The translations under genes were made by a program, and so were the position numbers. The notes beneath the pieces were generated by a model, which was not told the DNA's origin, did no database searches, and saw nothing but the letters and a program-made list of their open reading frames with translations. Shown in pieces: positions 25,797 to 38,369 of a DNA stretch of 64,000 nt (positions are counted from its first letter, which is position 1; every line of letters begins with the position of its first letter). Source of the stretch: Escherichia coli (lineage in GTDB: Bacteria > Pseudomonadota > Gammaproteobacteria > Enterobacterales > Enterobacteriaceae); the NCBI RefSeq assembly GCF_051903065.1, contig NZ_CP178438.1; one strand, given 5' to 3'.

Positions 25797-27110
25797 TCAA
25801 TCTTTTTTATCGGGATCAGGCTTCTTTTTAGGTAACTTCGGGGGCTTAACTTGCTGATGACTTTGCGTTCGGCGCGTAAGCCAGGGATGGTCAGCTTTAG
25901 GTTTAACATAGTATTTTGAGCGTAAATCAATACGGGCATTATCCACTCGTTCATGGACACTCTTTTCATCATCCGGTGGTATAGGCTCCGGGCCATCAAC
26001 ATACTTTTCCCAGCCCAGCGCTTTCCCGTCATACAGAACGTTAATTTCACCGTCAAAGTTCTCGCATACAGTAACAACCGAATGCCTAAGTCGATATCCC
26101 CGGCCCTCACTGCGTACCTGAAACGCACTGCTTTTGTACTGGAAAGTGAGATTTTTAGACAGAACGCGCTTCGCCTGTAGGCTGAAGATATAACCCAGTT
26201 CCTCTTCAGAATGGTGCACATCAAGATGAGCATTATCAGTAGTACGAGGCGACGTAGCGAACCGGTTGTTATAGGCTTCAATAAAGGTCGGCAACCATGC
26301 ATTTGCTGTTTCAATATCACTGATATTCTGAAGCCGCATTTCTTTGACCAGCCTGTCCTGTAGTGTCTGATTGGCGCGCTCTACCCGCCCTTTTGCCTGC
26401 GGGCTGTTGGCATGGATTGGCTCGATGCCCAGTGTCTTTATCGCACGAGTGAACTGGGTCAGCTCACCTTCCCGCTCTGGGTTATTTACCCTGAATATAC
26501 TGTGTCTATCAGAGTAGAGAGCGAGCGGTACGCCATGATCATTAAGGTAACCCCGGAGGGTTTCCATGTAAGCCCGGGTTGTTTCAGCAGGCACAAAACG
26601 CAACGCCATCAACGCACTGGTGGCATCATCAATGAAAACGATCAGTGTACATCTGGGGCCTCGATTTTCAAACCAGTCATGAGATGAGCCATCAATCTGG
26701 ATCAGTTCACCGTAAGATGGTCGTCGCATGCGGCGTTGATATATACGGGCAATTTTACGACGGCGTTCACGCCATAACCCCTCTTCTATCATCCACTTTC
26801 TGAGAGTTTCAACGGATAAAGATAAACCGTGTATCTCGCGCAATTTTTCGCACGCAAACGTAGGTCCAAAATCAGCGTAACGGCCTTTGAGGAGTGAAAT
26901 TACTGTTGCTCTGAATTCAGTAGAAAAGGAATTATTAGGACGCTTTCCACGTCGGTGGGAAACCAGACCAGAAGGCCCTTCATTTCTATACCGTTGCACC
27001 AGACGTTTAACCTGCCGAATAGAAATGCCAATGCGTGCCGCAGCTTGTTCCTGAATAATCTGAAGTCGGTGGAGTTCCTTATGACTCATCGTAACAGTCT
27101 CTTTGATCAT
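25797..27110 (-). CDS. DDE transposase/integrase with N-terminal HTH and rve (retroviral-integrase-type) core; IS481/ISNCY-like, family not confirmed
   Basis: 437-aa ORF; motifs ...IQIDGSSHDWF..., ...VFIDDATS..., ...HANSPQAKGRVERANQTLQDRL...; element ends not identified. Confidence 0.7.
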   Translation of the reverse strand: MIKETVTMSHKELHRLQIIQEQAAARIGISIRQVKRLVQRYRNEGPSGLVSHRRGKRPNNSFSTEFRATVISLLKGRYADFGPTFACEKLREIHGLSLSVETLRKWMIEEGLWRERRRKIARIYQRRMRRPSYGELIQIDGSSHDWFENRGPRCTLIVFIDDATSALMALRFVPAETTRAYMETLRGYLNDHGVPLALYSDRHSIFRVNNPEREGELTQFTRAIKTLGIEPIHANSPQAKGRVERANQTLQDRLVKEMRLQNISDIETANAWLPTFIEAYNNRFATSPRTTDNAHLDVHHSEEELGYIFSLQAKRVLSKNLTFQYKSSAFQVRSEGRGYRLRHSVVTVCENFDGEINVLYDGKALGWEKYVDGPEPIPPDDEKSVHERVDNARIDLRSKYYVKPKADHPWLTRRTQSHQQVKPPKLPKKKPDPDKKD

Positions 27111-27444
27111 GAAAAATCCCCCAGAGAATTGTCTGGGGACATTTTAGAATGGTTCAAAGGGGACATTACAGCTTGGTGTTAACAATAGCCTGCTTCTCCG
27201 TGCCTTTCGGCACGTAAGAGGCTAACCTACATGTGTCTAGCATGAAATTGGCCTCAGATTAATGTTAAGCGTCTTGCAGGACGCGTAATGTTAACTGGGG
27301 CTTTTCTCTATCTGCCGTTGGTGTCCATGCCCGAGGCAGATAGCCTCAAGCACCCGCAGTCATTCTACTTAACTAAGATTTCCCCGCAAACCGTTTTTGT
27401 CCAGCACAGTAAATATCCAACTAAACCAATGGAGTTCGCTGTAT

Positions 27445-27624
27445 TTACCGCCAGTATTCAATGCACATGACCGCCATGAACACCCCTAAAAAAAGGGCAT
27501 TTATATATCCAAATATTAATATCAAAACATCAACTTTTTCCATATACCTTGCTGTGAAGATGATGGGCATACATGATGCGAACAACCAGAACGCAACAAA
27601 CAAAAACTGCAATGCGTTTTTCAT
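27445..27624 (-). CDS. small membrane protein, 59 aa, two predicted TM helices, unknown function
   Basis: AGGAGG 4 nt upstream of ATG; MKNALQFLFVAFWLFASCMPIIFTARYMEKVDVLILIFGYINALFLGVFMAVMCIEYWR. Confidence 0.5.
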   Translation of the reverse strand: MKNALQFLFVAFWLFASCMPIIFTARYMEKVDVLILIFGYINALFLGVFMAVMCIEYWR

Positions 27625-27878
27625 TATTCCTCCTACAATCAATGTGCAATTACATTTAAACACACCTCAATTTGGCCGGACATATAAATATCTAAACCAG
27701 AAAAAATCACTTACATAGCGTTACAAACTCTTTAGTCTAAAGGTTCATCGTAAAACATTCCCCATACTTATCAGTCCGTTCCGCGCCAGGTAGCTCATTG
27801 CCTTATCTGGCAACCTGTAATCAGGTTTCCGCTTTTTCAGTTGGCTGGTCGTTTAACCGACATAGTTAATCCATTAAT

Positions 27879-28166
27879 CTAGTTGCCGGATGTTGGTGGA
27901 TTTTCGCGTTTTAGTTGTTCATAAAAGTGCACAGCTTTAACCAGTTCTTCTGATGTAACTGGGACTGGTGAGGCAGTGAATAAGGCCTGAATTTGATAGT
28001 TCGGCCTGTCGTTACAATCCTCTTTTTTCGGTACATATTTCCAGTCACCAGACCACTACTTCCCCTGAAAGTCCGTAACGCCTTTTTTCACGTAGCGATA
28101 TCGCCATGCCACTGGTTTTGCTTGCCCCGCCGTTTCATGCCCTTCCTGATAATTAATCTCGCTCAT
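27879..28166 (-). pseudogene. small prophage ORF (95 codons) interrupted by one in-frame TAG at 28056-28058
   Basis: Hand translation MSEINYQEGHETAGQAKPVAWRYRYVKKGVTDFQGK-TAG-WSGDWKYVPKKEDCNDRPNYQIQALFTASPVPVTSEELVKAVHFYEQLKRENPPTSGN. Confidence 0.45.
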
Positions 28167-28354
28167 TCATCGCCCCACTCATCACAATATGCTTCGACCG
28201 GAGTTTTTCCCGCTTCATAGTCATCACGCTAGGATTCGACATCAGCAGCACTTCCACCGCGTAACTCACCATAGTCCATTAATAGTTCATCCCGCTCTTC
28301 AAAACTGATGTTATATTTAGCTGAACAAAAATCAGCCACTTTGTTCTTCCTCAT
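28163..28354 (-). pseudogene. small prophage ORF (63 codons) interrupted by one in-frame TAG at 28229-28231; stop overlaps next ORF start (ATGA)
   Basis: Hand translation MRKNKVADFCSAKYNISFEERDELLMDYGELRGGSAADVES-TAG-RDDYEAGKTPVEAYCDEWGDE. Confidence 0.45.
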
Positions 28355-28403
28355 CGTCTTTTATTTCGTGGTATGAGTAATTGCAGTAGTTAAAGAAAAT
28401 TTC

Positions 28404-28514
28404 TTATGCTCCGTCATGAATTTCCTCAGGTGTTGCGTCATCGTCCACTTCGAATACATCCTCAAAATCTCCACCAGCTATTCCCGTTTCAATAATAATT
28501 TTGAACTTTCGCAT
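28404..28514 (-). CDS. possible small acidic ORF (36 aa) at head of degenerate small-gene cluster
   Basis: MRKFKIIIETGIAGGDFEDVFEVDDDATPEEIHDGA; may itself be a fragment. Confidence 0.25.
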   Translation of the reverse strand: MRKFKIIIETGIAGGDFEDVFEVDDDATPEEIHDGA

Positions 28515-28776
28515 TTCACTACCGCCCTTTCGGGCGGCCTCCTGATGTTCTGAGGGTGCAGAAATCCATCCGGTTAAGGATTAAATTTTATTTACAGAAC
28601 TGAATTTAATTATTCAGATATACGTATCTGTAGCCTTACGAATCTACTCACTGGATGCCTCTTTCATAAAAATAATCCAGTGGGTTTTATCGTTTTTTCC
28701 CTGTTCGTTGACAGATAACAGGTTTTCTGTCTGTCAGTGCCAGAATCTGGCTTACCGGTATTTGCGTTTCATTCCA

Positions 28777-29133
28777 TTAAAAAATCAGAACGCCGTGCGG
28801 CCTCAACACCCGAAAGGCTTCTTTAAATCTCTGTCGCGAATCATCACGCCAGGCATCTTTATTCAGCCGTCCATATTTCTTTCCCATCCAGGCGTTATCA
28901 CCAACACTCTCAAGATGCGGAGGGTCTAATACAACCATCGAAAAAGATGCGTCTGCAAATGATAATGCACGAAAATCTGCGATAATGTCAGGGCTGATAA
29001 TCAAGCGTCTCCCATTGCGTAATGTGTATCCTTCTTTTCTGATATCGCTGAATATCGCCCGTTCGTCAGACTTATCGAACCAGAACATGCGGCTGCCACA
29101 GCACATATCAAGAATGGTTGCCGGTGCACTCAC
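28777..29133 (-). CDS. SAM-dependent methyltransferase-like protein, probably truncated (118 aa)
   Basis: Motif I-like LDMCCGSRM and motif IV-like VVLDPPH; ORF too short for a complete DNA methyltransferase. Confidence 0.5.
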   Translation of the reverse strand: MSAPATILDMCCGSRMFWFDKSDERAIFSDIRKEGYTLRNGRRLIISPDIIADFRALSFADASFSMVVLDPPHLESVGDNAWMGKKYGRLNKDAWRDDSRQRFKEAFRVLRPHGVLIF

Positions 29134-29552
29134 TGCGCCACGTCCTGAAAATTACCCTGATAGAAAGCCAGTATGCGCTGCATAACTTCGCTCTTCCGGC
29201 ACTCGCGACAGATTATGTTTAGGCGACTGTCGTAGCGACGTATTTCTCCGTCAGGTGATGACCAGATAAGGTCCGGATCAACCACAGCAGGTTTCTTCAC
29301 CTTTGCCCTCGAGAGTTTTTTGCGGGCGTTTTGCCAGTCCTTACGCGCCTGTTCAGAGGGGAATAACCCGTAGCCGGAGTTGTATACATCGCCACTGGCT
29401 ACCAGCTCTCTGGCAAGAACGCTCATCAGATATCTAGTCGCACCTGTTTTAGCTTCCAGTTGCCGTAACGTCTCACGGCCGCTCTGGCGCACGAGTTCCA
29501 CCACCTGCCATTTAATTTTTTCCCGCTCTTCTTGTGTAAAAACTTTTGCCAC
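29130..29552 (-). CDS. hypothetical protein (140 aa), translationally coupled to downstream methyltransferase-like gene
   Basis: Stop overlaps next start (ATGA at 29130-29133); HTH-like segment TLRQLEAKTGATRYLMSVLARELV. Confidence 0.5.
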   Translation of the reverse strand: MAKVFTQEEREKIKWQVVELVRQSGRETLRQLEAKTGATRYLMSVLARELVASGDVYNSGYGLFPSEQARKDWQNARKKLSRAKVKKPAVVDPDLIWSSPDGEIRRYDSRLNIICRECRKSEVMQRILAFYQGNFQDVAQ

Positions 29553-29592
29553 AAGTCCCCCTTAAAATTACCTCATGACCTGAAATCAACAC

Positions 29593-30558
29593 TTATCCTC
29601 TGAAACCAGGCGGAATTTCTGTATCCGGTTCAGAAATATGATTAACACAACGCTGTACAGGTGAACGTCCCAGGCGGATGACCAGTTCGTCCCATTTTTC
29701 GAGGAGCTTTGACGGGCTCATGATGTTTTTTACCCAGAATGGATCTCGCTGAACCCGACCAAACATTTCGCAAATTTGTCTGTGGCTTCTGCCATCCAGC
29801 ATCCGCATTGTGCGCACGTCATTGGCCCAGGCAGTCCAGTTAGGCTCTTTTGGTCGCATGATCTCGCCATCATCACTGGCTGCCTGTTCGTAGAGACCCA
29901 CGATCCGCCCCCAGATCCACTGCGCACACGCCAAATCCTCCCTGCTACCCCACTGGCGTTTTTTCGCACTAAACACAACCGCGTCGGAGTTCCGGGTTAA
30001 AAAATCCTGTTCAGTCGTCTGCGGGTCCGGTTGCGAAGCTTCCGGACGAAAAGTGTTTTTATTCTCTGTAGTAATCTCTGTTGTATTCTCTGTAAGATCA
30101 TCAGGCCATTTTGACCCGATGACATTGGGTCGTTTTGAACCAATGGAGCGTTTCATTTTGACCTCTTCCATCGTGTCATTTTGACCTGATGGAGCGGCGC
30201 ATTTTGAACCGATGGATTCGCTCAATTTGCCACCATCTAAAAGCTCGCTCCCATAGTTGATCGTGTAGAAATTGGTCATATCGCGCTTTGATTTATTGAG
30301 CTTTTCACAACGCAAAAGCCCCAGCGTTTTCAGACTTGCAAACGCGCGCTTTAACGTTGACTCTGACCAGAATGGGAACTGTTCCAGCCATTGTTCCGTT
30401 GTGTTATAAATCCAGCGAACACCATCACATTCCATGCCGGAGTTGGTATCTCTCAACCAGTAGTGCAGTTGTTGCAAAACAATGGCTTCGTTTAAGCCAA
30501 TTTTCATTGCCAGCTGCGTGTTTATAACCAGTGGGCGTTCAGCAAAAAGAAGGCTCAT
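29593..30558 (-). CDS. lambda O-like replication initiation protein
   Basis: ORF 29593-30612 (start probably Met at 30558); C-terminal region ...WANDVRTMRMLDGRSHRQICEMFG... resembles lambda gpO; iterons inside gene. Confidence 0.75.
   Translation of the reverse strand: MSLLFAERPLVINTQLAMKIGLNEAIVLQQLHYWLRDTNSGMECDGVRWIYNTTEQWLEQFPFWSESTLKRAFASLKTLGLLRCEKLNKSKRDMTNFYTINYGSELLDGGKLSESIGSKCAAPSGQNDTMEEVKMKRSIGSKRPNVIGSKWPDDLTENTTEITTENKNTFRPEASQPDPQTTEQDFLTRNSDAVVFSAKKRQWGSREDLACAQWIWGRIVGLYEQAASDDGEIMRPKEPNWTAWANDVRTMRMLDGRSHRQICEMFGRVQRDPFWVKNIMSPSKLLEKWDELVIRLGRSPVQRCVNHISEPDTEIPPGFRG
30105..30240. repeat. iteron array (5-6 copies, ~23-24 bp period) inside O-like gene: candidate replication origin
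   Basis: Repeated CATTTTGACC/CGTTTTGAACC...GATGGA units at ~30107, 30131, 30154, 30177, 30201, 30224; flanked by AT-rich TCTCTGT repeats. Confidence 0.7.
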
Positions 30559-31060
30559 AATTCCATCCAGCTTTTTGTTGGTATTGCTGTCGATACGCAA
30601 GTTTGAAAGCAATTGCTTTTTCTATAAGTTCGTCAGTTTCACGATCCACTACGGCAGGATCAGCAAAAAGCAGTCCGGACTCCACCACATCGCCATATTC
30701 TTTGTTTAACCCGGCGATCATGCACGTGATGCTTTTTCCGTCAGTAATTTCACGATACAACCTGAAATCATTAATCCGGATAGCCTCCATAATTGCAGGC
30801 ACTAGCGCCGTGAACTTTTCACGCTTATCCCTGGTGTCGATAGCCTTCCAGCGTTCAAATATCTTCACTCGATTAACGCCAAGCGCTCGCTGATCAATCG
30901 CGCCACCTTCATATGTGACACGCTGAACATCGATGTTCGGGCGCTCTTTCAAAGCCCAGAATGCTTCAGTGATTAATATCGTCGCCTGCTCCTGTGTCAT
31001 TCCTGGTCGACATATCCAGGCATCCAGAGCCTCACGAGCCTGTTCAGGAGTGATTTTCAT
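30539..31060 (-). CDS. YdaT-like protein (cII-position regulator analog)
   Basis: 173-aa ORF downstream of cro-like dicC; ...DKREKFTALVPAIMEAI... resembles Rac YdaT by memory. Confidence 0.55.
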   Translation of the reverse strand: MKITPEQAREALDAWICRPGMTQEQATILITEAFWALKERPNIDVQRVTYEGGAIDQRALGVNRVKIFERWKAIDTRDKREKFTALVPAIMEAIRINDFRLYREITDGKSITCMIAGLNKEYGDVVESGLLFADPAVVDRETDELIEKAIAFKLAYRQQYQQKAGWNYEPSFC

Positions 31061-31274
31061 TGTTCAACCGCCCCGCCCGCTTCGTCTTACGATATTCATC
31101 ATAAACTTTGGGATCATACTGAAGCTCCCCGCCAGATGCCTCCTGTAGACGCATCGCGCGACCTTCGGGAACTAAATCCCCTTTCCAGCTATAAAGCGAA
31201 GCCAAACGAATACCTGCTGCTTGTGCAAGTTTTGTTTTTGAACCGAAATACAAAAGAGCGTCAGTTTTAAGCAT
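31044..31274 (-). CDS. dicC: Cro-like repressor DicC
   Basis: 76-aa ORF MLKTDALLYFGSKTKLAQAAGIRLASLYSWKG...; divergent from dicA. Confidence 0.85.
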   Translation of the reverse strand: MLKTDALLYFGSKTKLAQAAGIRLASLYSWKGDLVPEGRAMRLQEASGGELQYDPKVYDEYRKTKRAGRLNNENHS

Positions 31275-31357
31275 TTAAAACACCTTTATTGTTAGCCATA
31301 ACTAACAAGATAGATGTTAACAAAAACATAGTCAATACGATTTAGCATTAGCTAACT

Positions 31358-31765
31358 ATGGAAACAAAAAATTTAACTATCGGCGAACGCATCAGGTATC
31401 GTCGGAAAAACCTCAAACACACCCAAAGGTCTCTTGCTAAAGCCCTGAAAATCTCCCATGTGTCTGTATCACAATGGGAACGGGGTGATAGTGAACCTAC
31501 AGGGAAGAACCTTTTTGCCCTCAGCAAAGTATTGCAATGCTCACCAACATGGATTCTATTTGGCGATGAAGACAAGCAACCAACACCACCTGTTGAGAAG
31601 CCAGTTGCCTTATCCCCCAAAGAACTAGAGCTCCTTGAGCTGTTTAATGCACTGCCAGAATCAGAACAGGATACCCAGCTCGCCGAAATGCGAGCTCGAG
31701 TAAAAAACTTCAATAAACTCTTTGAAGAATTACTAAAAGCCCGTCAGCGGACAAATAAAAGATAA
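31358..31765 (+). CDS. dicA: CI-like repressor DicA (HTH_XRE)
   Basis: 135-aa ORF METKNLTIGERIRYRRKNLKHTQRSLAKALKISHVSVSQWERG... Confidence 0.9.
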   Translation: METKNLTIGERIRYRRKNLKHTQRSLAKALKISHVSVSQWERGDSEPTGKNLFALSKVLQCSPTWILFGDEDKQPTPPVEKPVALSPKELELLELFNALPESEQDTQLAEMRARVKNFNKLFEELLKARQRTNKR

Positions 31766-31931
31766 CATCATCAATGAGTTATCTTTTACCACATCAATTA
31801 TGTTAGCTATAGCATACAAAATCACTTGACCGATATGTTAGTCATGGCTAATCTTGTTTGCATCAACACACCGCACGGTGTTCTCAGCAAACAGTTCCGC
31901 TACCCCAGCGTTAAGGGGAAATGAGGTCAGC

Positions 31932-32087
31932 ATGGATACTATCGATCTTGGCAACAACGAATCTCTGGTGTACGGCGTGTTTCCAAACCAGGACGGCACG
32001 TTCACCGCAATGACGTATACCAAAAGCAAAACGTTTAAAACCGAAAATGGTGCCCGTCGCTGGCTGGAAAGAAACTCAGGTGAGTGA
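31932..32087 (+). CDS. ydfA: small prophage protein YdfA
   Basis: ORF 31854-32087; likely start MDTIDLGNNESLVYGVFPNQDG... Confidence 0.7.
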   Translation: MDTIDLGNNESLVYGVFPNQDGTFTAMTYTKSKTFKTENGARRWLERNSGE

Positions 32088-32088
32088 T

Positions 32089-32217
32089 ATGGATTTCGAC
32101 ACAATCATGGAAAAGGCTTACGAAGAATACTTCGAAGGCCTTGCCGAAGGCGAAGAAGCTCTCAGCTTCAGTGAGTTTAAACAGGCGCTTTCCAGTTCGG
32201 CAAAATCTAACGGCTGA
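32089..32217 (+). CDS. ydfB: small prophage protein YdfB (42 aa)
   Basis: Hand translation MDFDTIMEKAYEEYFEGLAEGEEALSFSEFKQALSSSAKSNG. Confidence 0.7.
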   Translation: MDFDTIMEKAYEEYFEGLAEGEEALSFSEFKQALSSSAKSNG

Positions 32218-32246
32218 TAAGCGAAACAGCACCGCGAGGAATCAGT

Positions 32247-32465
32247 ATGCAGAAACGAGAACCCGTCATCATCGCGCCAGACTATACCGATGATGAACTT
32301 TATGAGTGGATGCGCCAGAAAATTAATGCAGCGCAGGATCTGAAATGGGCTAATGAAGCCAGGGCTAAGCAGGCTGAAAATCTGTCCGCTCTGGAGCAGG
32401 ATATCACCAATCTGGAAAAAGCAGCGGCATTAAGCATTGCCAGAATGATTACATACCCGCGTTAG
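32247..32465 (+). CDS. ydfC: small prophage protein YdfC
   Basis: 72-aa ORF MQKREPVIIAPDYTDDELYEWMRQKINAAQDLK... Confidence 0.8.
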   Translation: MQKREPVIIAPDYTDDELYEWMRQKINAAQDLKWANEARAKQAENLSALEQDITNLEKAAALSIARMITYPR

Positions 32466-32805
32466 TAGCTAATCAACAAAGCTAAGGTTAGTAATTAAGG
32501 AGTTCTCCACGGGTGAGGTGGAGTGCGTGCGCCGGACACGGGTGCGCATCCGGAACTGACAGTTTACTGAAAGGATATTTCCCTGAAAAGTCAGACCATA
32601 ACGCGAAAGCGCACGGCGAGGTAGCTGGTTCATAGATAGCCTGTCGTTAAATTTTCATCGACCGTGCGCTTCCGGTTGTGGCAACCCGCGAAATGGCGCG
32701 GCGGTAAGTATGGCGGGGTTATTCCTTCCCCGTTGAGGACACCGGGTTGTCAGGTTGACCATACGCTTAAGTGACAACCCCGCTGCAACGCCCTCTGTTA
32801 TCAAT

Positions 32806-32863
32806 TTTCTGGTGACGTTTGGCGGTATCAGTTTTACTCCGTGACTGCTCTGCCGCCCTTTTT
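32806..32863 (+). ncRNA. dicF: DicF small regulatory RNA (ftsZ-targeting)
   Basis: TTTCTGGTGACGTTTGGCGGTATCAGTTTTACTCCGTGACTGCTCTGCCGCCCTTTTT matches remembered DicF with intrinsic terminator; ends approximate. Confidence 0.8.
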
Positions 32864-33032
32864 AAAGTGAATTTTGTGATGTGGTGAATGCGGCTGAGCG
32901 CACGCGGAACAGTTAAAACCAAAAACAGTGTTATGGGTGGATTCTCTGTATCCGGCGTTAATTGTTAACTGGTTAACGTCACCTGGAGGCACCAGGCACT
33001 GCATCACAAAATTCATTGTTGAGGACGCGATA

Positions 33033-33056
33033 ATGAAAACGTTATTACCAAACGTT
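33033..33056 (+). pseudogene. dicB: dicB (cell-division inhibitor) first 8 codons only; interrupted by IS1
   Basis: ATG AAA ACG TTA TTA CCA AAC GTT (MKTLLPNV) then IS1 left end at 33057. Confidence 0.75.
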
Positions 33057-33071
33057 GGTAATGACTCCAAC

Positions 33072-33575
33072 TTATTGATAGTGTTTTATGTTCAGATAAT
33101 GCCCGATGACTTTGTCATGCAGCTCCACCGATTTTGAGAACGACAGCGACTTCCGTCCCAGCCGTGCCAGGTGCTGCCTCAGATTCAGGTTATGCCGCTC
33201 AATTCGCTGCGTATATCGCTTGCTGATTACGTGCAGCTTTCCCTTCAGGCGGGATTCATACAGCGGACAGCCATCCGTCATCCATATCACCACGTCAAAG
33301 GGTGACAGCAGGCTCATAAGACGCCCCAGCGTCGCCATAGTGCGTTCACCGAATACGTGCGCAACAACCGTCTTCCGGAGCCTGTCATACGCGTAAAACA
33401 GCCAGCGCTGGCGCGATTTAGCCCCGACATAGCCCCACTGTTCGTCCATTTCCGCGCAGACGATGACGTCACTGCCCGGCTGTATGCGCGAGGTTACCGA
33501 CTGCGGCCTGAGTTTTTTAAGTGACGTAAAATCGTGTTGAGGCCAACGCCCATAATGCGGGCTGTTGCCCGGCAT
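33072..33575 (-). CDS. insB: IS1 InsB (expressed as InsAB' by frameshift)
   Basis: 167-aa ORF overlapping insA 3' end. Confidence 0.9.
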
Positions 33576-33769
33576 CCAACGCCATTCATGGCCATATCAA
33601 TGATTTTCTGGTGCGTACCGGGTTGAGAAGCGGTGTAAGTGAACTGCAGTTGCCATGTTTTACGGCAGTGAGAGCAGAGATAGCGCTGATGTCCGGCGGT
33701 GCTTTTGCCGTTACGCACCACCCCGTCAGTAGCTGAACAGGAGGGACAGCTGATAGAAACAGAAGCCAC
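33494..33769 (-). CDS. insA: IS1 InsA
   Basis: 91-aa [46 protein letters not shown]... Confidence 0.9.
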
Positions 33770-33824
33770 TGGAGCACCTCAAAAACACCATCATACACTA
33801 AATCAGTAAGTTGGCAGCATCACC

Positions 33825-37893: not shown

Positions 37894-38027
37894 CTTTGTC
37901 ACTTATTGACATCATGTATAGTTATAGGGCGACATAATATCATCAATATAAACACCCTCTTGGTACGTTTTGCGTCCGCAGTGGATGGTGTAGAATCACC
38001 TTTAATCATTCACACAGGGAATGAATT

Positions 38028-38369
38028 ATGAAAATCACTCTCAGCAAACGAATCGGCCTGCTCGCTTTTCTGCTGCCTTGCGCACTGGCATTGAGCACAA
38101 CTGTTCATGCCGAAACTAACAAACTGGTGATTGAGTCTGGCGACAGTGCACAAAGCCGCCAGCACGCCGCTATGGAAAAAGAGCAATGGAATGACACGCG
38201 CAATCTGCGTCAGAAAGTGAATAAACGCACTGAAAAAGAGTGGGATAAAGCCGACGCCGCTTTTGATAACCGCGATAAATGTGAGCAAAGCGCCAACATC
38301 AATGCCTACTGGGAGCCCAATACTTTGCGCTGCCTGGACCGTCGAACTGGCCGCGTTATTACCCCCTAA
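38028..38369 (+). CDS. ynfB: secreted protein YnfB (signal peptide)
   Basis: 113-aa [31 protein letters not shown]... Confidence 0.85.

Follow-up and report, generated by a model that had tools for sequence, protein, structure and literature searches.

The DicA and DicC proteins of the Qin prophage of Escherichia coli K-12 constitute a functional bistable switch of the CI/Cro type, in which DicA has the role of the repressor and does not contain a RecA-cleavage bond (PMC10448788). Binding of DicA to the Oc operator and activation by DicA of its own expression were established experimentally in K-12; Om and Oa were designated solely by their sequence, and DicA did not bind either of them in an in vivo assay (PMC3441716). 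DicA also represses dicBp, the promoter of the dicB operon, where three operators were reported, and the K-12 switch flips spontaneously in a subpopulation of cells (PMC10448788). The studies of this switch use K-12, in which only a truncated remnant of the CII analogue, ydfX, is left.

A CII-like family has been described from other prophages, notably YdaT of Rac (b1358) and CP-933P (PDB 8bt1, 3c4r), and was characterized structurally and genetically between 2021 and 2025. In CP-933P, YdaS and YdaT act as analogues of Cro and CII, respectively (PMC8630535, PMC9986795). A truncated CP-933P YdaT consisting of residues 1–96 was monomeric and did not bind DNA.

Organization of the immunity region

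We analyzed a 64-kb stretch of E. coli DNA, referred to here as the window, containing the lysis/lysogeny control (early-right) region of a Qin-type lambdoid prophage. Comparison of the list of open reading frames with RefSeq annotation identified four genes, which are annotated alike in near-identical RefSeq genomes:

31358–31765, + strand: dicA, 135 aa (open reading frame; Pfam HTH_3; NCBIfam NF007257)
31044–31274, − strand: dicC, 76 aa (Pfam P22_Cro; NCBIfam NF007282)
30539–31060, − strand: gene for a YdaT-family (CII-analogous) regulator, 173 aa, full length
29593–30558, − strand: gene for an O-like replication initiator, starting with the ATG at 30558 and encoding 321 aa (phrog_391; PGAP coordinates)

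The divergent pair of CI-like and Cro-like genes reported in the preliminary description of this DNA was confirmed, and both proteins are identical to their K-12 counterparts. [quoted passage not shown] DicC matched P22_Cro (E = 1.7e-11) and scored 159.5 bits against NF007282 (cut-off 130). From these data we identify dicA as the gene for a CI-analogous repressor and dicC as the gene for a Cro analogue belonging to the P22 Cro family.

The YdaT-like gene begins within dicC, whose last 17 nt it shares, and its end overlaps the O-like gene by 20 nt. The overlap of dicC with the gene that follows leaves no space for a nutR/tR1 region, unlike the situation in lambda. The 321-aa protein had no match in Pfam or NCBIfam profile searches and matched phrog_391, 'replication initiation O-like', with an E value of 7.3e-91. 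Most records give its gene as 'hypothetical', and two name it 'phage replication protein O'. The resulting order of Cro-like, CII-like, O-like and Ren-like (DUF977, phrog_142) genes is lambda-like, except that the O-like and Ren-like genes have no P homologue between them, unlike in the cro-cII-O-P-ren arrangement of lambda. The order repressor, cro-like gene, ydaT and replication genes was present in all eight of the diverged loci listed with called genes (in one of them, L004, the cro-like open reading frame itself was not called). This synteny and the profile matches described below bear out the earlier assignment: the position of cII is taken by a YdaT-family gene, and the O-like gene comes next.

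Operators of the DicA/DicC switch

The intergenic region between dicA and dicC is about 83 bp long and differs from that of K-12 by a single base, located in the Oc spacer (C versus T at 31296). Operator searches in this region and in the remainder of the window gave the following elements:

31289–31308: Oc operator, TTGTTAGCCATAACTAACAA, a perfect TGTTAG-N6-CTAACA palindrome adjoining dicC
31335–31307, − strand: candidate dicC promoter, TTGACT-17-TATCTT, promoter-like by scan
31313–31357: Om- and Oa-like operator sequences, weaker, assigned by position to the names used in the literature
31340–31357: Oa-like sequence, ATTTAGCATTAGCTAACT, with three mismatches, ending at the dicA start codon
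31801–31818 and 31836–31853: operator-like sites downstream of dicA, TGTTAGCTATAGCATACA and TGTTAGTCATGGCTAATC, at the dicB-operon promoter

Oc was the only match without mismatches to TGTTAG-N6-CTAACA in the 64-kb window. Oc borders directly on the −10 hexamer of the putative dicC promoter, with which it has one base in common (31307), and this promoter overlies the Om region. The two sites downstream of dicA were the sole matches with two mismatches in the 64 kb. The dicB-operon promoter at which they lie, dicBp, is the PL analogue of this prophage.

The 173-aa protein is a full-length member of the YdaT family

RefSeq names the product of the 173-aa gene 'toxin YdaT family protein'. The protein passed the Pfam PF06254 threshold narrowly (24.2 bits; gathering score 21), and a phmmer search against the YdaT chains in the PDB was marginal (E = 0.06–0.08). 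Pairwise similarity to Rac YdaT was also weak, with 12 identities in 29 positions of one local segment, and overall identity was about 20% in an 11-sequence alignment. As the search against PDB chains was marginal, we relied on the PHROG profile and on a comparison of folds to decide on family membership. Residues 1–155 matched PHROG 163, 'CII-like transcriptional activator', with an E value of 5.5e-40; Rac YdaT matches the same profile (E = 2.2e-37). The AlphaFold2 model (pLDDT 85) contains a POU-like, all-alpha helix-turn-helix domain with a long α2–α3 loop, followed by a C-terminal helical region. The resemblance to YdaT that had been noticed earlier is therefore clear at the level of profile and fold, and we conclude that the protein is a full-length YdaT-family regulator.

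The modeled C-terminal helices span residues 111–130 and 135–164 and, by analogy with characterized YdaT proteins, most likely serve in oligomerization. Arg70 and Trp71, located in the recognition helix, do not vary among the 11 aligned sequences, where they correspond to R57 and W58 of Rac YdaT. Mutation of Rac R57 together with H56 showed a requirement for DNA binding, and W58 was proposed to maintain the fold (PMC11879457). The CP-933P residue Arg60, the counterpart of Rac R57, is the only recognition-helix residue that is fully conserved across the YdaT family (PMC9986795). Glu69 of the 173-aa protein stands at the position of Rac His56, and because of this replacement its DNA specificity may differ from that of Rac YdaT.

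The Qin-type protein also departs from its characterized relatives in several respects. It is about 20–30% identical to the Rac and CP-933P proteins, which are 140–141 aa long, and its α2–α3 loop is longer. Rac and CP-933P YdaT have one long α6 where the model of the Qin-type protein predicts two C-terminal helices, and they are paired with a Cro protein of the YdaS type rather than with a P22-Cro-type protein such as DicC. No Pfam match of the 173-aa protein to lambda CII (PF05269-type) was found, nor was there a CII structure among its PDB fold matches. Its relation to lambda CII is one of functional analogy only.

The corresponding gene of K-12 Qin is truncated

The preliminary description treated the YdaT-like gene as one not known from K-12 Qin. 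K-12 does contain the 5' half of the gene as ydfX (b1568, 96 aa), the product of which is 100% identical to residues 1–93 of the 173-aa protein and which overlaps dicC by 17 nt in K-12 as well. YdfX was already named 'Qin prophage YdaT homolog' in a 2025 paper (PMC11879457). Comparing the K-12 locus with the window by BLAST identified the missing stretch:

25982–30780: 4.8 kb present here and deleted in the Qin prophage of K-12 MG1655

The suggestion that this prophage keeps a larger part of the early region than its K-12 counterpart was thus correct. The extra 4.8 kb contain the 3' half of the YdaT-like gene, the O-like gene, the DUF977/Ren-like gene and a short methyltransferase gene, as well as a sok RNA match and an ISNCY transposase fragment. 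The deletion junction in K-12 lies between the short imperfect repeats GGTATAGGCTCC and GGATAGCCTCC, and DNA identity to K-12 is 99.8% over the YdfA/YdfB stretch. YdfX is accordingly the same gene reduced by the 4.8-kb deletion to a 96-aa truncation without C-terminal helices. Since the oligomerization helices are gone YdfX is probably inactive, and by analogy with YdaT 1–96 it should not bind DNA. Because K-12 has only this remnant, conclusions on the stability of the K-12 switch may not transfer to strains or phages with the full-length gene.

A YdaT-box-like element spans the start codon of the YdaT-like gene

A candidate regulatory element was found at the junction of dicC and the YdaT-like gene:

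31050–31067, − strand: TTGAAC-AATGAA-AATCAC, a YdaT-box-like element that includes the start codon of the YdaT-like gene (ATG, 31060–31058)

The Rac box, ATGATTCATGAAAATCAA, was footprinted in the same position and register as the Qin-type element (PMC11879457), and the boxes footprinted at this place in Rac and CP-933P are both required for activation of a reverse promoter. By analogy, we propose 31050–31067 as a candidate binding site for a tetramer of the YdaT-like protein. Its half-sites are TTGAAC and AATCAC, compared to (A/T)TGATT and AATCAA in Rac and CP-933P. Relative to the published TTGATT-N6-AATCAA the element has three mismatches, and the window contains 40 such matches versus 46 expected by chance; a degenerate core pattern gave four matches versus three expected. 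As a lone pattern match in the window is at chance level, support for the box comes from its conservation across loci.

A TGAWY-N7-ATCA core was present over the start codon in 10 of 10 diverged loci examined, with 2.0 bits in each of the TGA and ATCA columns. The flanks further upstream mostly reach 1 bit or less, apart from one purine-rich column at 1.5 that probably reflects the ribosome-binding site. The spacing of the box is fixed even in two loci in which the ATG is shifted by 3 nt, and the box is kept in 79 of 80 near-identical viral contigs. As the right half corresponds to codons 2–4 (K-I-T), part of this conservation could be coding. The palindrome is poor, TTGAAC and GTGATT agreeing at three of six positions. 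Whereas Rac has additional sites between its repressor and cro-like genes, no YdaT-box-like site with three or fewer mismatches was found in the dicA–dicC intergenic region. The target of YdaT is an inverted repeat, in contrast to the direct repeat TTGC-N6-TTGC that is recognized by lambda CII. The presence of this box-like element over the start codon in the 10 loci is our own addition to the known picture.

Distribution and state of the prophage

The module is common and already annotated, and the feature itself is known. At least 80% of the YdaT-like gene is present in about 2,120 of 5,426 complete E. coli genomes; half or all of it has been lost in K-12 and many other strains. Phage PhiR42_1, in which the immunity genes are annotated cI, Cro, cII and O, encodes an identical 173-aa protein labelled cII, and its DNA is 99.9% identical to positions 26542–33056 of the window over 6.5 kb. 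HannyBb and mEp460 carry a YdaT-like protein that is 97.7% identical. These three were deposited as complete phage genomes, whereas the prophage in the window is defective, having lost the N-terminus of its integrase and acquired an insertion in dicB:

33057–33824: IS1, inserted after 24 nt of dicB and replacing everything from there up to and including the integrase N-terminus

An ISNCY fragment and pseudogenes are also found nearby. As the prophage is defective, the YdaT-like gene may be carried without use.

Proposed control of the early-right region and alternative explanations

We consider it probable that this region operates by lambda-like early-right control with the YdaT-family protein as the CII arm. 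In this scheme DicA binds Oc and the dicBp operators, keeping dicC and the dicB operon off while favoring its own synthesis. Once DicA is relieved, transcription from the dicC promoter covers dicC, the YdaT-like gene and the O-like gene as one tightly overlapped unit. On the model of YdaT from Rac and CP-933P, the 173-aa protein would then act as a functional analogue of lambda CII, forming a tetramer via its C-terminal helices and binding the inverted-repeat-like box at 31050–31067 over its own start codon. The bound protein may stimulate transcription of the + strand (leftward in the phage) through dicC towards dicA, which would return the switch to lysogeny with DicA on. Lambda CII has the same position and the same proposed job, namely to switch on synthesis of the repressor from a promoter that lies antisense to cro. 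A promoter scan and a relaxed hexamer scan gave no credible sigma-70-like promoter on the + strand inside dicC, so a PRE analogue is hypothetical here. Two 8/12 matches from the relaxed scan lie in the intergenic region or in dicA and have 19-bp spacers. The downstream effect of YdaT appears to differ between prophages, as CP-933P YdaT reportedly leaves the CI analogue unaffected.

The database names (YdaS_toxin, YdaT_toxin and the RefSeq product name) would make the DicC/YdaT-like pair a toxin–antitoxin system, with the 173-aa protein a toxin rather than a transcription factor. We rejected this reading on the basis of the literature and the fold, and regard it as highly improbable. It was tested in CP-933P, where no toxicity was observed and the two proteins behaved as Cro and CII analogues (PMC8630535, PMC9986795). 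In Rac, over-expressed YdaT causes filamentation and death, but this toxicity is described as a consequence of transcriptional activation of rcsA (PMC11879457). The sequence offers no support for a toxin: the protein has a POU-like helix-turn-helix fold, and its gene occupies the slot of cII in phages, between cro and O. The label 'toxin YdaT family protein' shared by RefSeq and Pfam is therefore misleading for this gene.

Two further explanations accept a DNA-binding protein or an intact gene and dispense with activation of repressor synthesis or with function altogether. The location of the box between the ribosome-binding site and codon 4 in every locus would suit an autoregulatory block, by which the YdaT-like protein mainly limits read-through from the dicC promoter into its own gene and the O-like gene. 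A reverse promoter is not recognizable in dicC, and YdaT was described as functional 'as a repressor' in the structural study (PMC9986795). We nevertheless think it unlikely that blocking is its main role, as CP-933P YdaT switched on the otherwise silent PRE933P (PMC8630535). We also regard it as quite improbable that the gene, though intact, is a passenger that has no role in this host and stays silent under constant repression of the dicC promoter by DicA. The decay of the prophage and the loss of the gene from K-12 and many other strains would fit such a passenger, but the open reading frame is full length and 100% identical to the PhiR42_1 copy, and it is retained in the roughly 2,120 genomes mentioned above. 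Moreover, as the K-12 switch flips spontaneously in a subpopulation (PMC10448788), genes driven by the dicC promoter are expressed at times. Control by a CII-like activator thus is the explanation that we favor. As a textbook lambdoid immunity module whose CII-like component comes from a characterized family, the locus matters little beyond correct annotation.

A more tentative suggestion, which we hold to be possible although doubtful, concerns the box itself. It may be a conserved family-wide element, embedded in the start codon and travelling with ydaT across cI/cro alleles, and might have a dual job, combining antisense activation directed at the repressor with a block on read-through into ydaT and the replication genes. 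If so, K-12 with its truncated YdfX would represent a bistable switch without the CII arm, and the intact switch, found in about 40% of complete E. coli genomes, would flip and reset unlike the K-12 model. When viral contigs were scanned with the subfamily alignment, all copies recovered were 95–100% identical, and they showed mosaic pairing with other immunity alleles.

Organization of the immunity region

The four genes of the immunity region were confirmed from the ORF list, the sequence and RefSeq annotation of near-identical chromosomes.

Genes of the immunity region (from the ORF list and sequence)
31358-31765, + strand: dicA, 135 aa
31044-31274, - strand: dicC, 76 aa, divergent from dicA
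30539-31060, - strand: YdaT-like ORF, 173 aa, with its ATG 17 nt within the end of dicC
29593-30558, - strand: O-like ORF, 321 aa, with its ATG 20 nt within the end of the 173-aa ORF

A 3-kb query spanning these genes matched many complete E. coli chromosomes at 99.9-100% identity, in which RefSeq names the products DicA, DicC, 'toxin YdaT family protein' and then either 'hypothetical protein' or 'phage replication protein O'. DicA and DicC are the same protein sequences as in K-12, and both exceeded the NCBIfam cut-offs for their families. The 321-aa protein matched phrog_391, 'replication initiation O-like' (E 7e-91); the next gene encodes a DUF977 ('Ren-like') protein and is followed by a short DNA methyltransferase gene. 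As these matches follow the YdaT-like gene, the order is CI-like/Cro-like, CII-like, O-like and Ren-like, and the lambdoid early-right layout proposed in the preliminary description holds, but without a P homologue. The order repressor, cro-like gene, ydaT and replication genes was found in all eight diverged loci (Citrobacter, Raoultella and metagenomes) whose called genes were listed, the cro-like ORF being uncalled in one of them (L004). The methyltransferase ORF (28777-29133, - strand) encodes only 118 aa, aligns to positions 52-165 of a PHROG profile with 229 positions and may therefore be a truncated or naturally short version; phage PhiR42_1 has the same 357-nt gene.

The 173-aa protein is a member of the YdaT family

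Pairwise evidence for the noted resemblance to YdaT was weak: BLASTP against Rac YdaT aligned a single 29-residue segment at 41% identity, and phmmer gave E 0.06-0.08 for PDB chains 3c4r and 8bt1. The Pfam YdaT_toxin model was passed narrowly (24.2 bits against a gathering threshold of 21). PHROG 163, 'CII-like transcriptional activator', covered residues 1-155 with E 5.5e-40, and Rac YdaT matched the same profile (E 2.2e-37). Exhaustive searching also recovered intermediates (31-36% identity) with N-termini resembling canonical YdaT. An AlphaFold2 model built from an 11-sequence alignment had a mean pLDDT of 85, and its top PDB match by Foldseek was CP-933P YdaT (8bt1; probability 1.00). The recognition-helix Arg-Trp pair, R70 and W71, is invariant in the alignment and aligns with Rac R57 and W58. 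DNA binding by Rac YdaT requires R57, as tested in a double mutant with H56, and W58 has been suggested to preserve the fold (PMC11879457); CP-933P Arg60 is the sole fully conserved residue of the recognition helix (PMC9986795). From the profile and structural evidence we conclude that the 173-aa protein clearly belongs to the YdaT family. It exceeds the characterised members by about 30 residues, its alpha2-alpha3 loop, a segment known to differ among family members, is longer, and Glu69 occupies the position of Rac His56. Whereas characterised YdaT proteins have one long alpha6, the model predicts two C-terminal helices. A toxin role was rejected on the basis of the fold and the literature.

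A YdaT-box-like element over the start codon

YdaT of Rac and of CP-933P is a tetramer. Its target is an inverted repeat where ydaS meets ydaT, ATGATTCATGAAAATCAA or TTGATT-N6-AATCAA, whose spacer contains the ydaT ATG (Rac: PMC11879457). Bound there, it switches on a promoter that runs antisense to the cro-like gene and is an analogue of lambda PRE (CP-933P: PMC8630535). The window contains TTGAAC-AATGAA-AATCAC at 31050-31067 (- strand) in exactly the same register. This box is not significant by itself, and its right half doubles as codons 2-4. When ten diverged loci were anchored on ATCA, TGA (-12 to -10) and ATCA were invariant (2.0 bits each); positions further upstream mostly carried at most 1 bit, apart from one purine-rich column (1.5) that is probably the ribosome-binding site. 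The start codon lies 3 nt closer in two of the ten loci while the TGA-ATCA spacing remains constant, which argues that the DNA element itself is constrained.

By analogy, we propose that the 173-aa protein binds the box and from there promotes transcription of the + strand in the direction of dicA. This proposal is weakest in that neither the built-in promoter scan nor a relaxed hexamer scan found a recognisable reverse promoter inside dicC. Such a result is expected for an activator-dependent promoter, yet it is no evidence for one. In the main rival explanation, the protein bound at the box would be a roadblock or an autorepressor.

Matches to the core pattern TGAWY-N7-ATCA occur in the window at chance level (4 against 3 expected). 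One of them, ATGAATTATGAAAATCAC at 38021-38038 (+ strand), lies at the ynfB start codon (MKIT...), placed as the box is on the YdaT-like gene. As ynfB belongs to the host and control of a host gene by Rac YdaT is known, this match may merit a brief look.

Operators and promoters

The palindrome TGTTAG-N6-CTAACA has one perfect match in the 64 kb, at 31290-31307, within the published DicA operator Oc (PMC3441716). Relative to K-12 one spacer base of Oc differs (31296, C here and T in K-12) and the half-sites are the same. The only two matches with two mismatches, at 31801 and 31836, lie at the dicB-operon promoter, and an operator-like site with three mismatches ends at the dicA start codon. 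Since the total count at three mismatches is at chance level, only the clustering of the best matches is meaningful. A dicC promoter-like site, TTGACT-17-TATCTT (31335-31307, - strand), adjoins Oc with one base in common and lies over the operator-like Om region. No promoter or Shine-Dalgarno sequence was recognisable for dicA, in agreement with published remarks (PMC3441716). The stop codon of dicA falls within a perfect 11-bp inverted repeat (TAAAAGATAAC ... GTTATCTTTTA, 31756-31788), which lies shortly before the operators of dicBp. The repeat is without a T-run and could be a tImm-like terminator of the dicA transcript or a site for a protein.

K-12 ydfX is a deletion remnant

The preliminary description did not count the YdaT-like gene among those of K-12 Qin; K-12 does carry a remnant, ydfX (b1568, 96 aa), which immediately follows dicC and overlaps it by 17 nt, as here. 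YdfX residues 1-93 match the window protein at 100% identity. The deletion junction is flanked by two short repeats that match imperfectly, GGTATAGGCTCC and GGATAGCCTCC. As alignment of the two loci shows that K-12 lacks window positions 25982-30780 (4.8 kb), the proposal that this prophage keeps more of the early region stands: the YdaT-like 3' half, the O-like and Ren-like genes, the methyltransferase gene, a sok RNA match and an ISNCY fragment are retained here. YdfX is probably inactive, because it lacks the C-terminal helices and CP-933P YdaT cut to a comparable length (1-96) is a monomer that fails to bind DNA.

The sok antitoxin RNA match (27184-27355, - strand; Rfam score 104 bits, gathering score 59) lies inside the stretch absent from K-12 Qin and would constitute a second hok/sok-type locus besides hokD; nearby, RefSeq has only frameshifted 'hypothetical' pseudogenes. 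Between ydfW and the methyltransferase gene (26067-27089), the annotation of the near-identical strain MS1665 has a fragment of an ISNCY-family transposase together with two disrupted ORFs, further signs of a defective prophage.

Distribution and exchange between immunity types

The box was kept in 79 of 80 near-identical copies on viral contigs, only 23 of which were paired with dicA/dicC alleles at least 95% identical. In EDL933 (L013, 3190-3275) and the other 57 contigs, the YdaT-like gene and box (89-100% identical) are joined to different cI/cro alleles, with the recombination boundary in the 3'-terminal part of the cro-like gene, and the EDL933 operator palindrome is instead CCTTAG-N6-CTAAGG. 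The gene and box are therefore exchanged together, as a module, among immunity types, and this allele mixing is typical lambdoid mosaicism.

Publications already describe the YdaT family, with its structure and CII-like role, and YdfX has been named the Qin YdaT homolog (PMC11879457). Phage PhiR42_1, whose region is 99.9% identical to window 26542-33056, encodes an identical protein annotated cII, and at least 80% of the YdaT-like gene is present in about 2,120 of 5,426 complete E. coli genomes. The feature is ordinary and already known, and its initial interpretation is supported. Our additions are small: the explicit demonstration of ydfX as a deletion remnant, and the conservation of the box across loci in this subtype.

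The IS1 junction

An IS1 element at 33057-33824 (insA/insB ORFs, 33072-33769) replaces codon 9 of dicB through the middle of the integrase gene. The window agrees with K-12 and MS1665 as far as 33056 and again from 33825, within intQ/int; missing as a result are dicB, ydfD, the exonuclease gene, xis and the N-terminus of int. The DicF RNA (32807-32858) is intact. The exact IS1 junction was found as a single contiguous match in only four of the 5,426 complete genomes, two at 100% and two at 98.8% identity.
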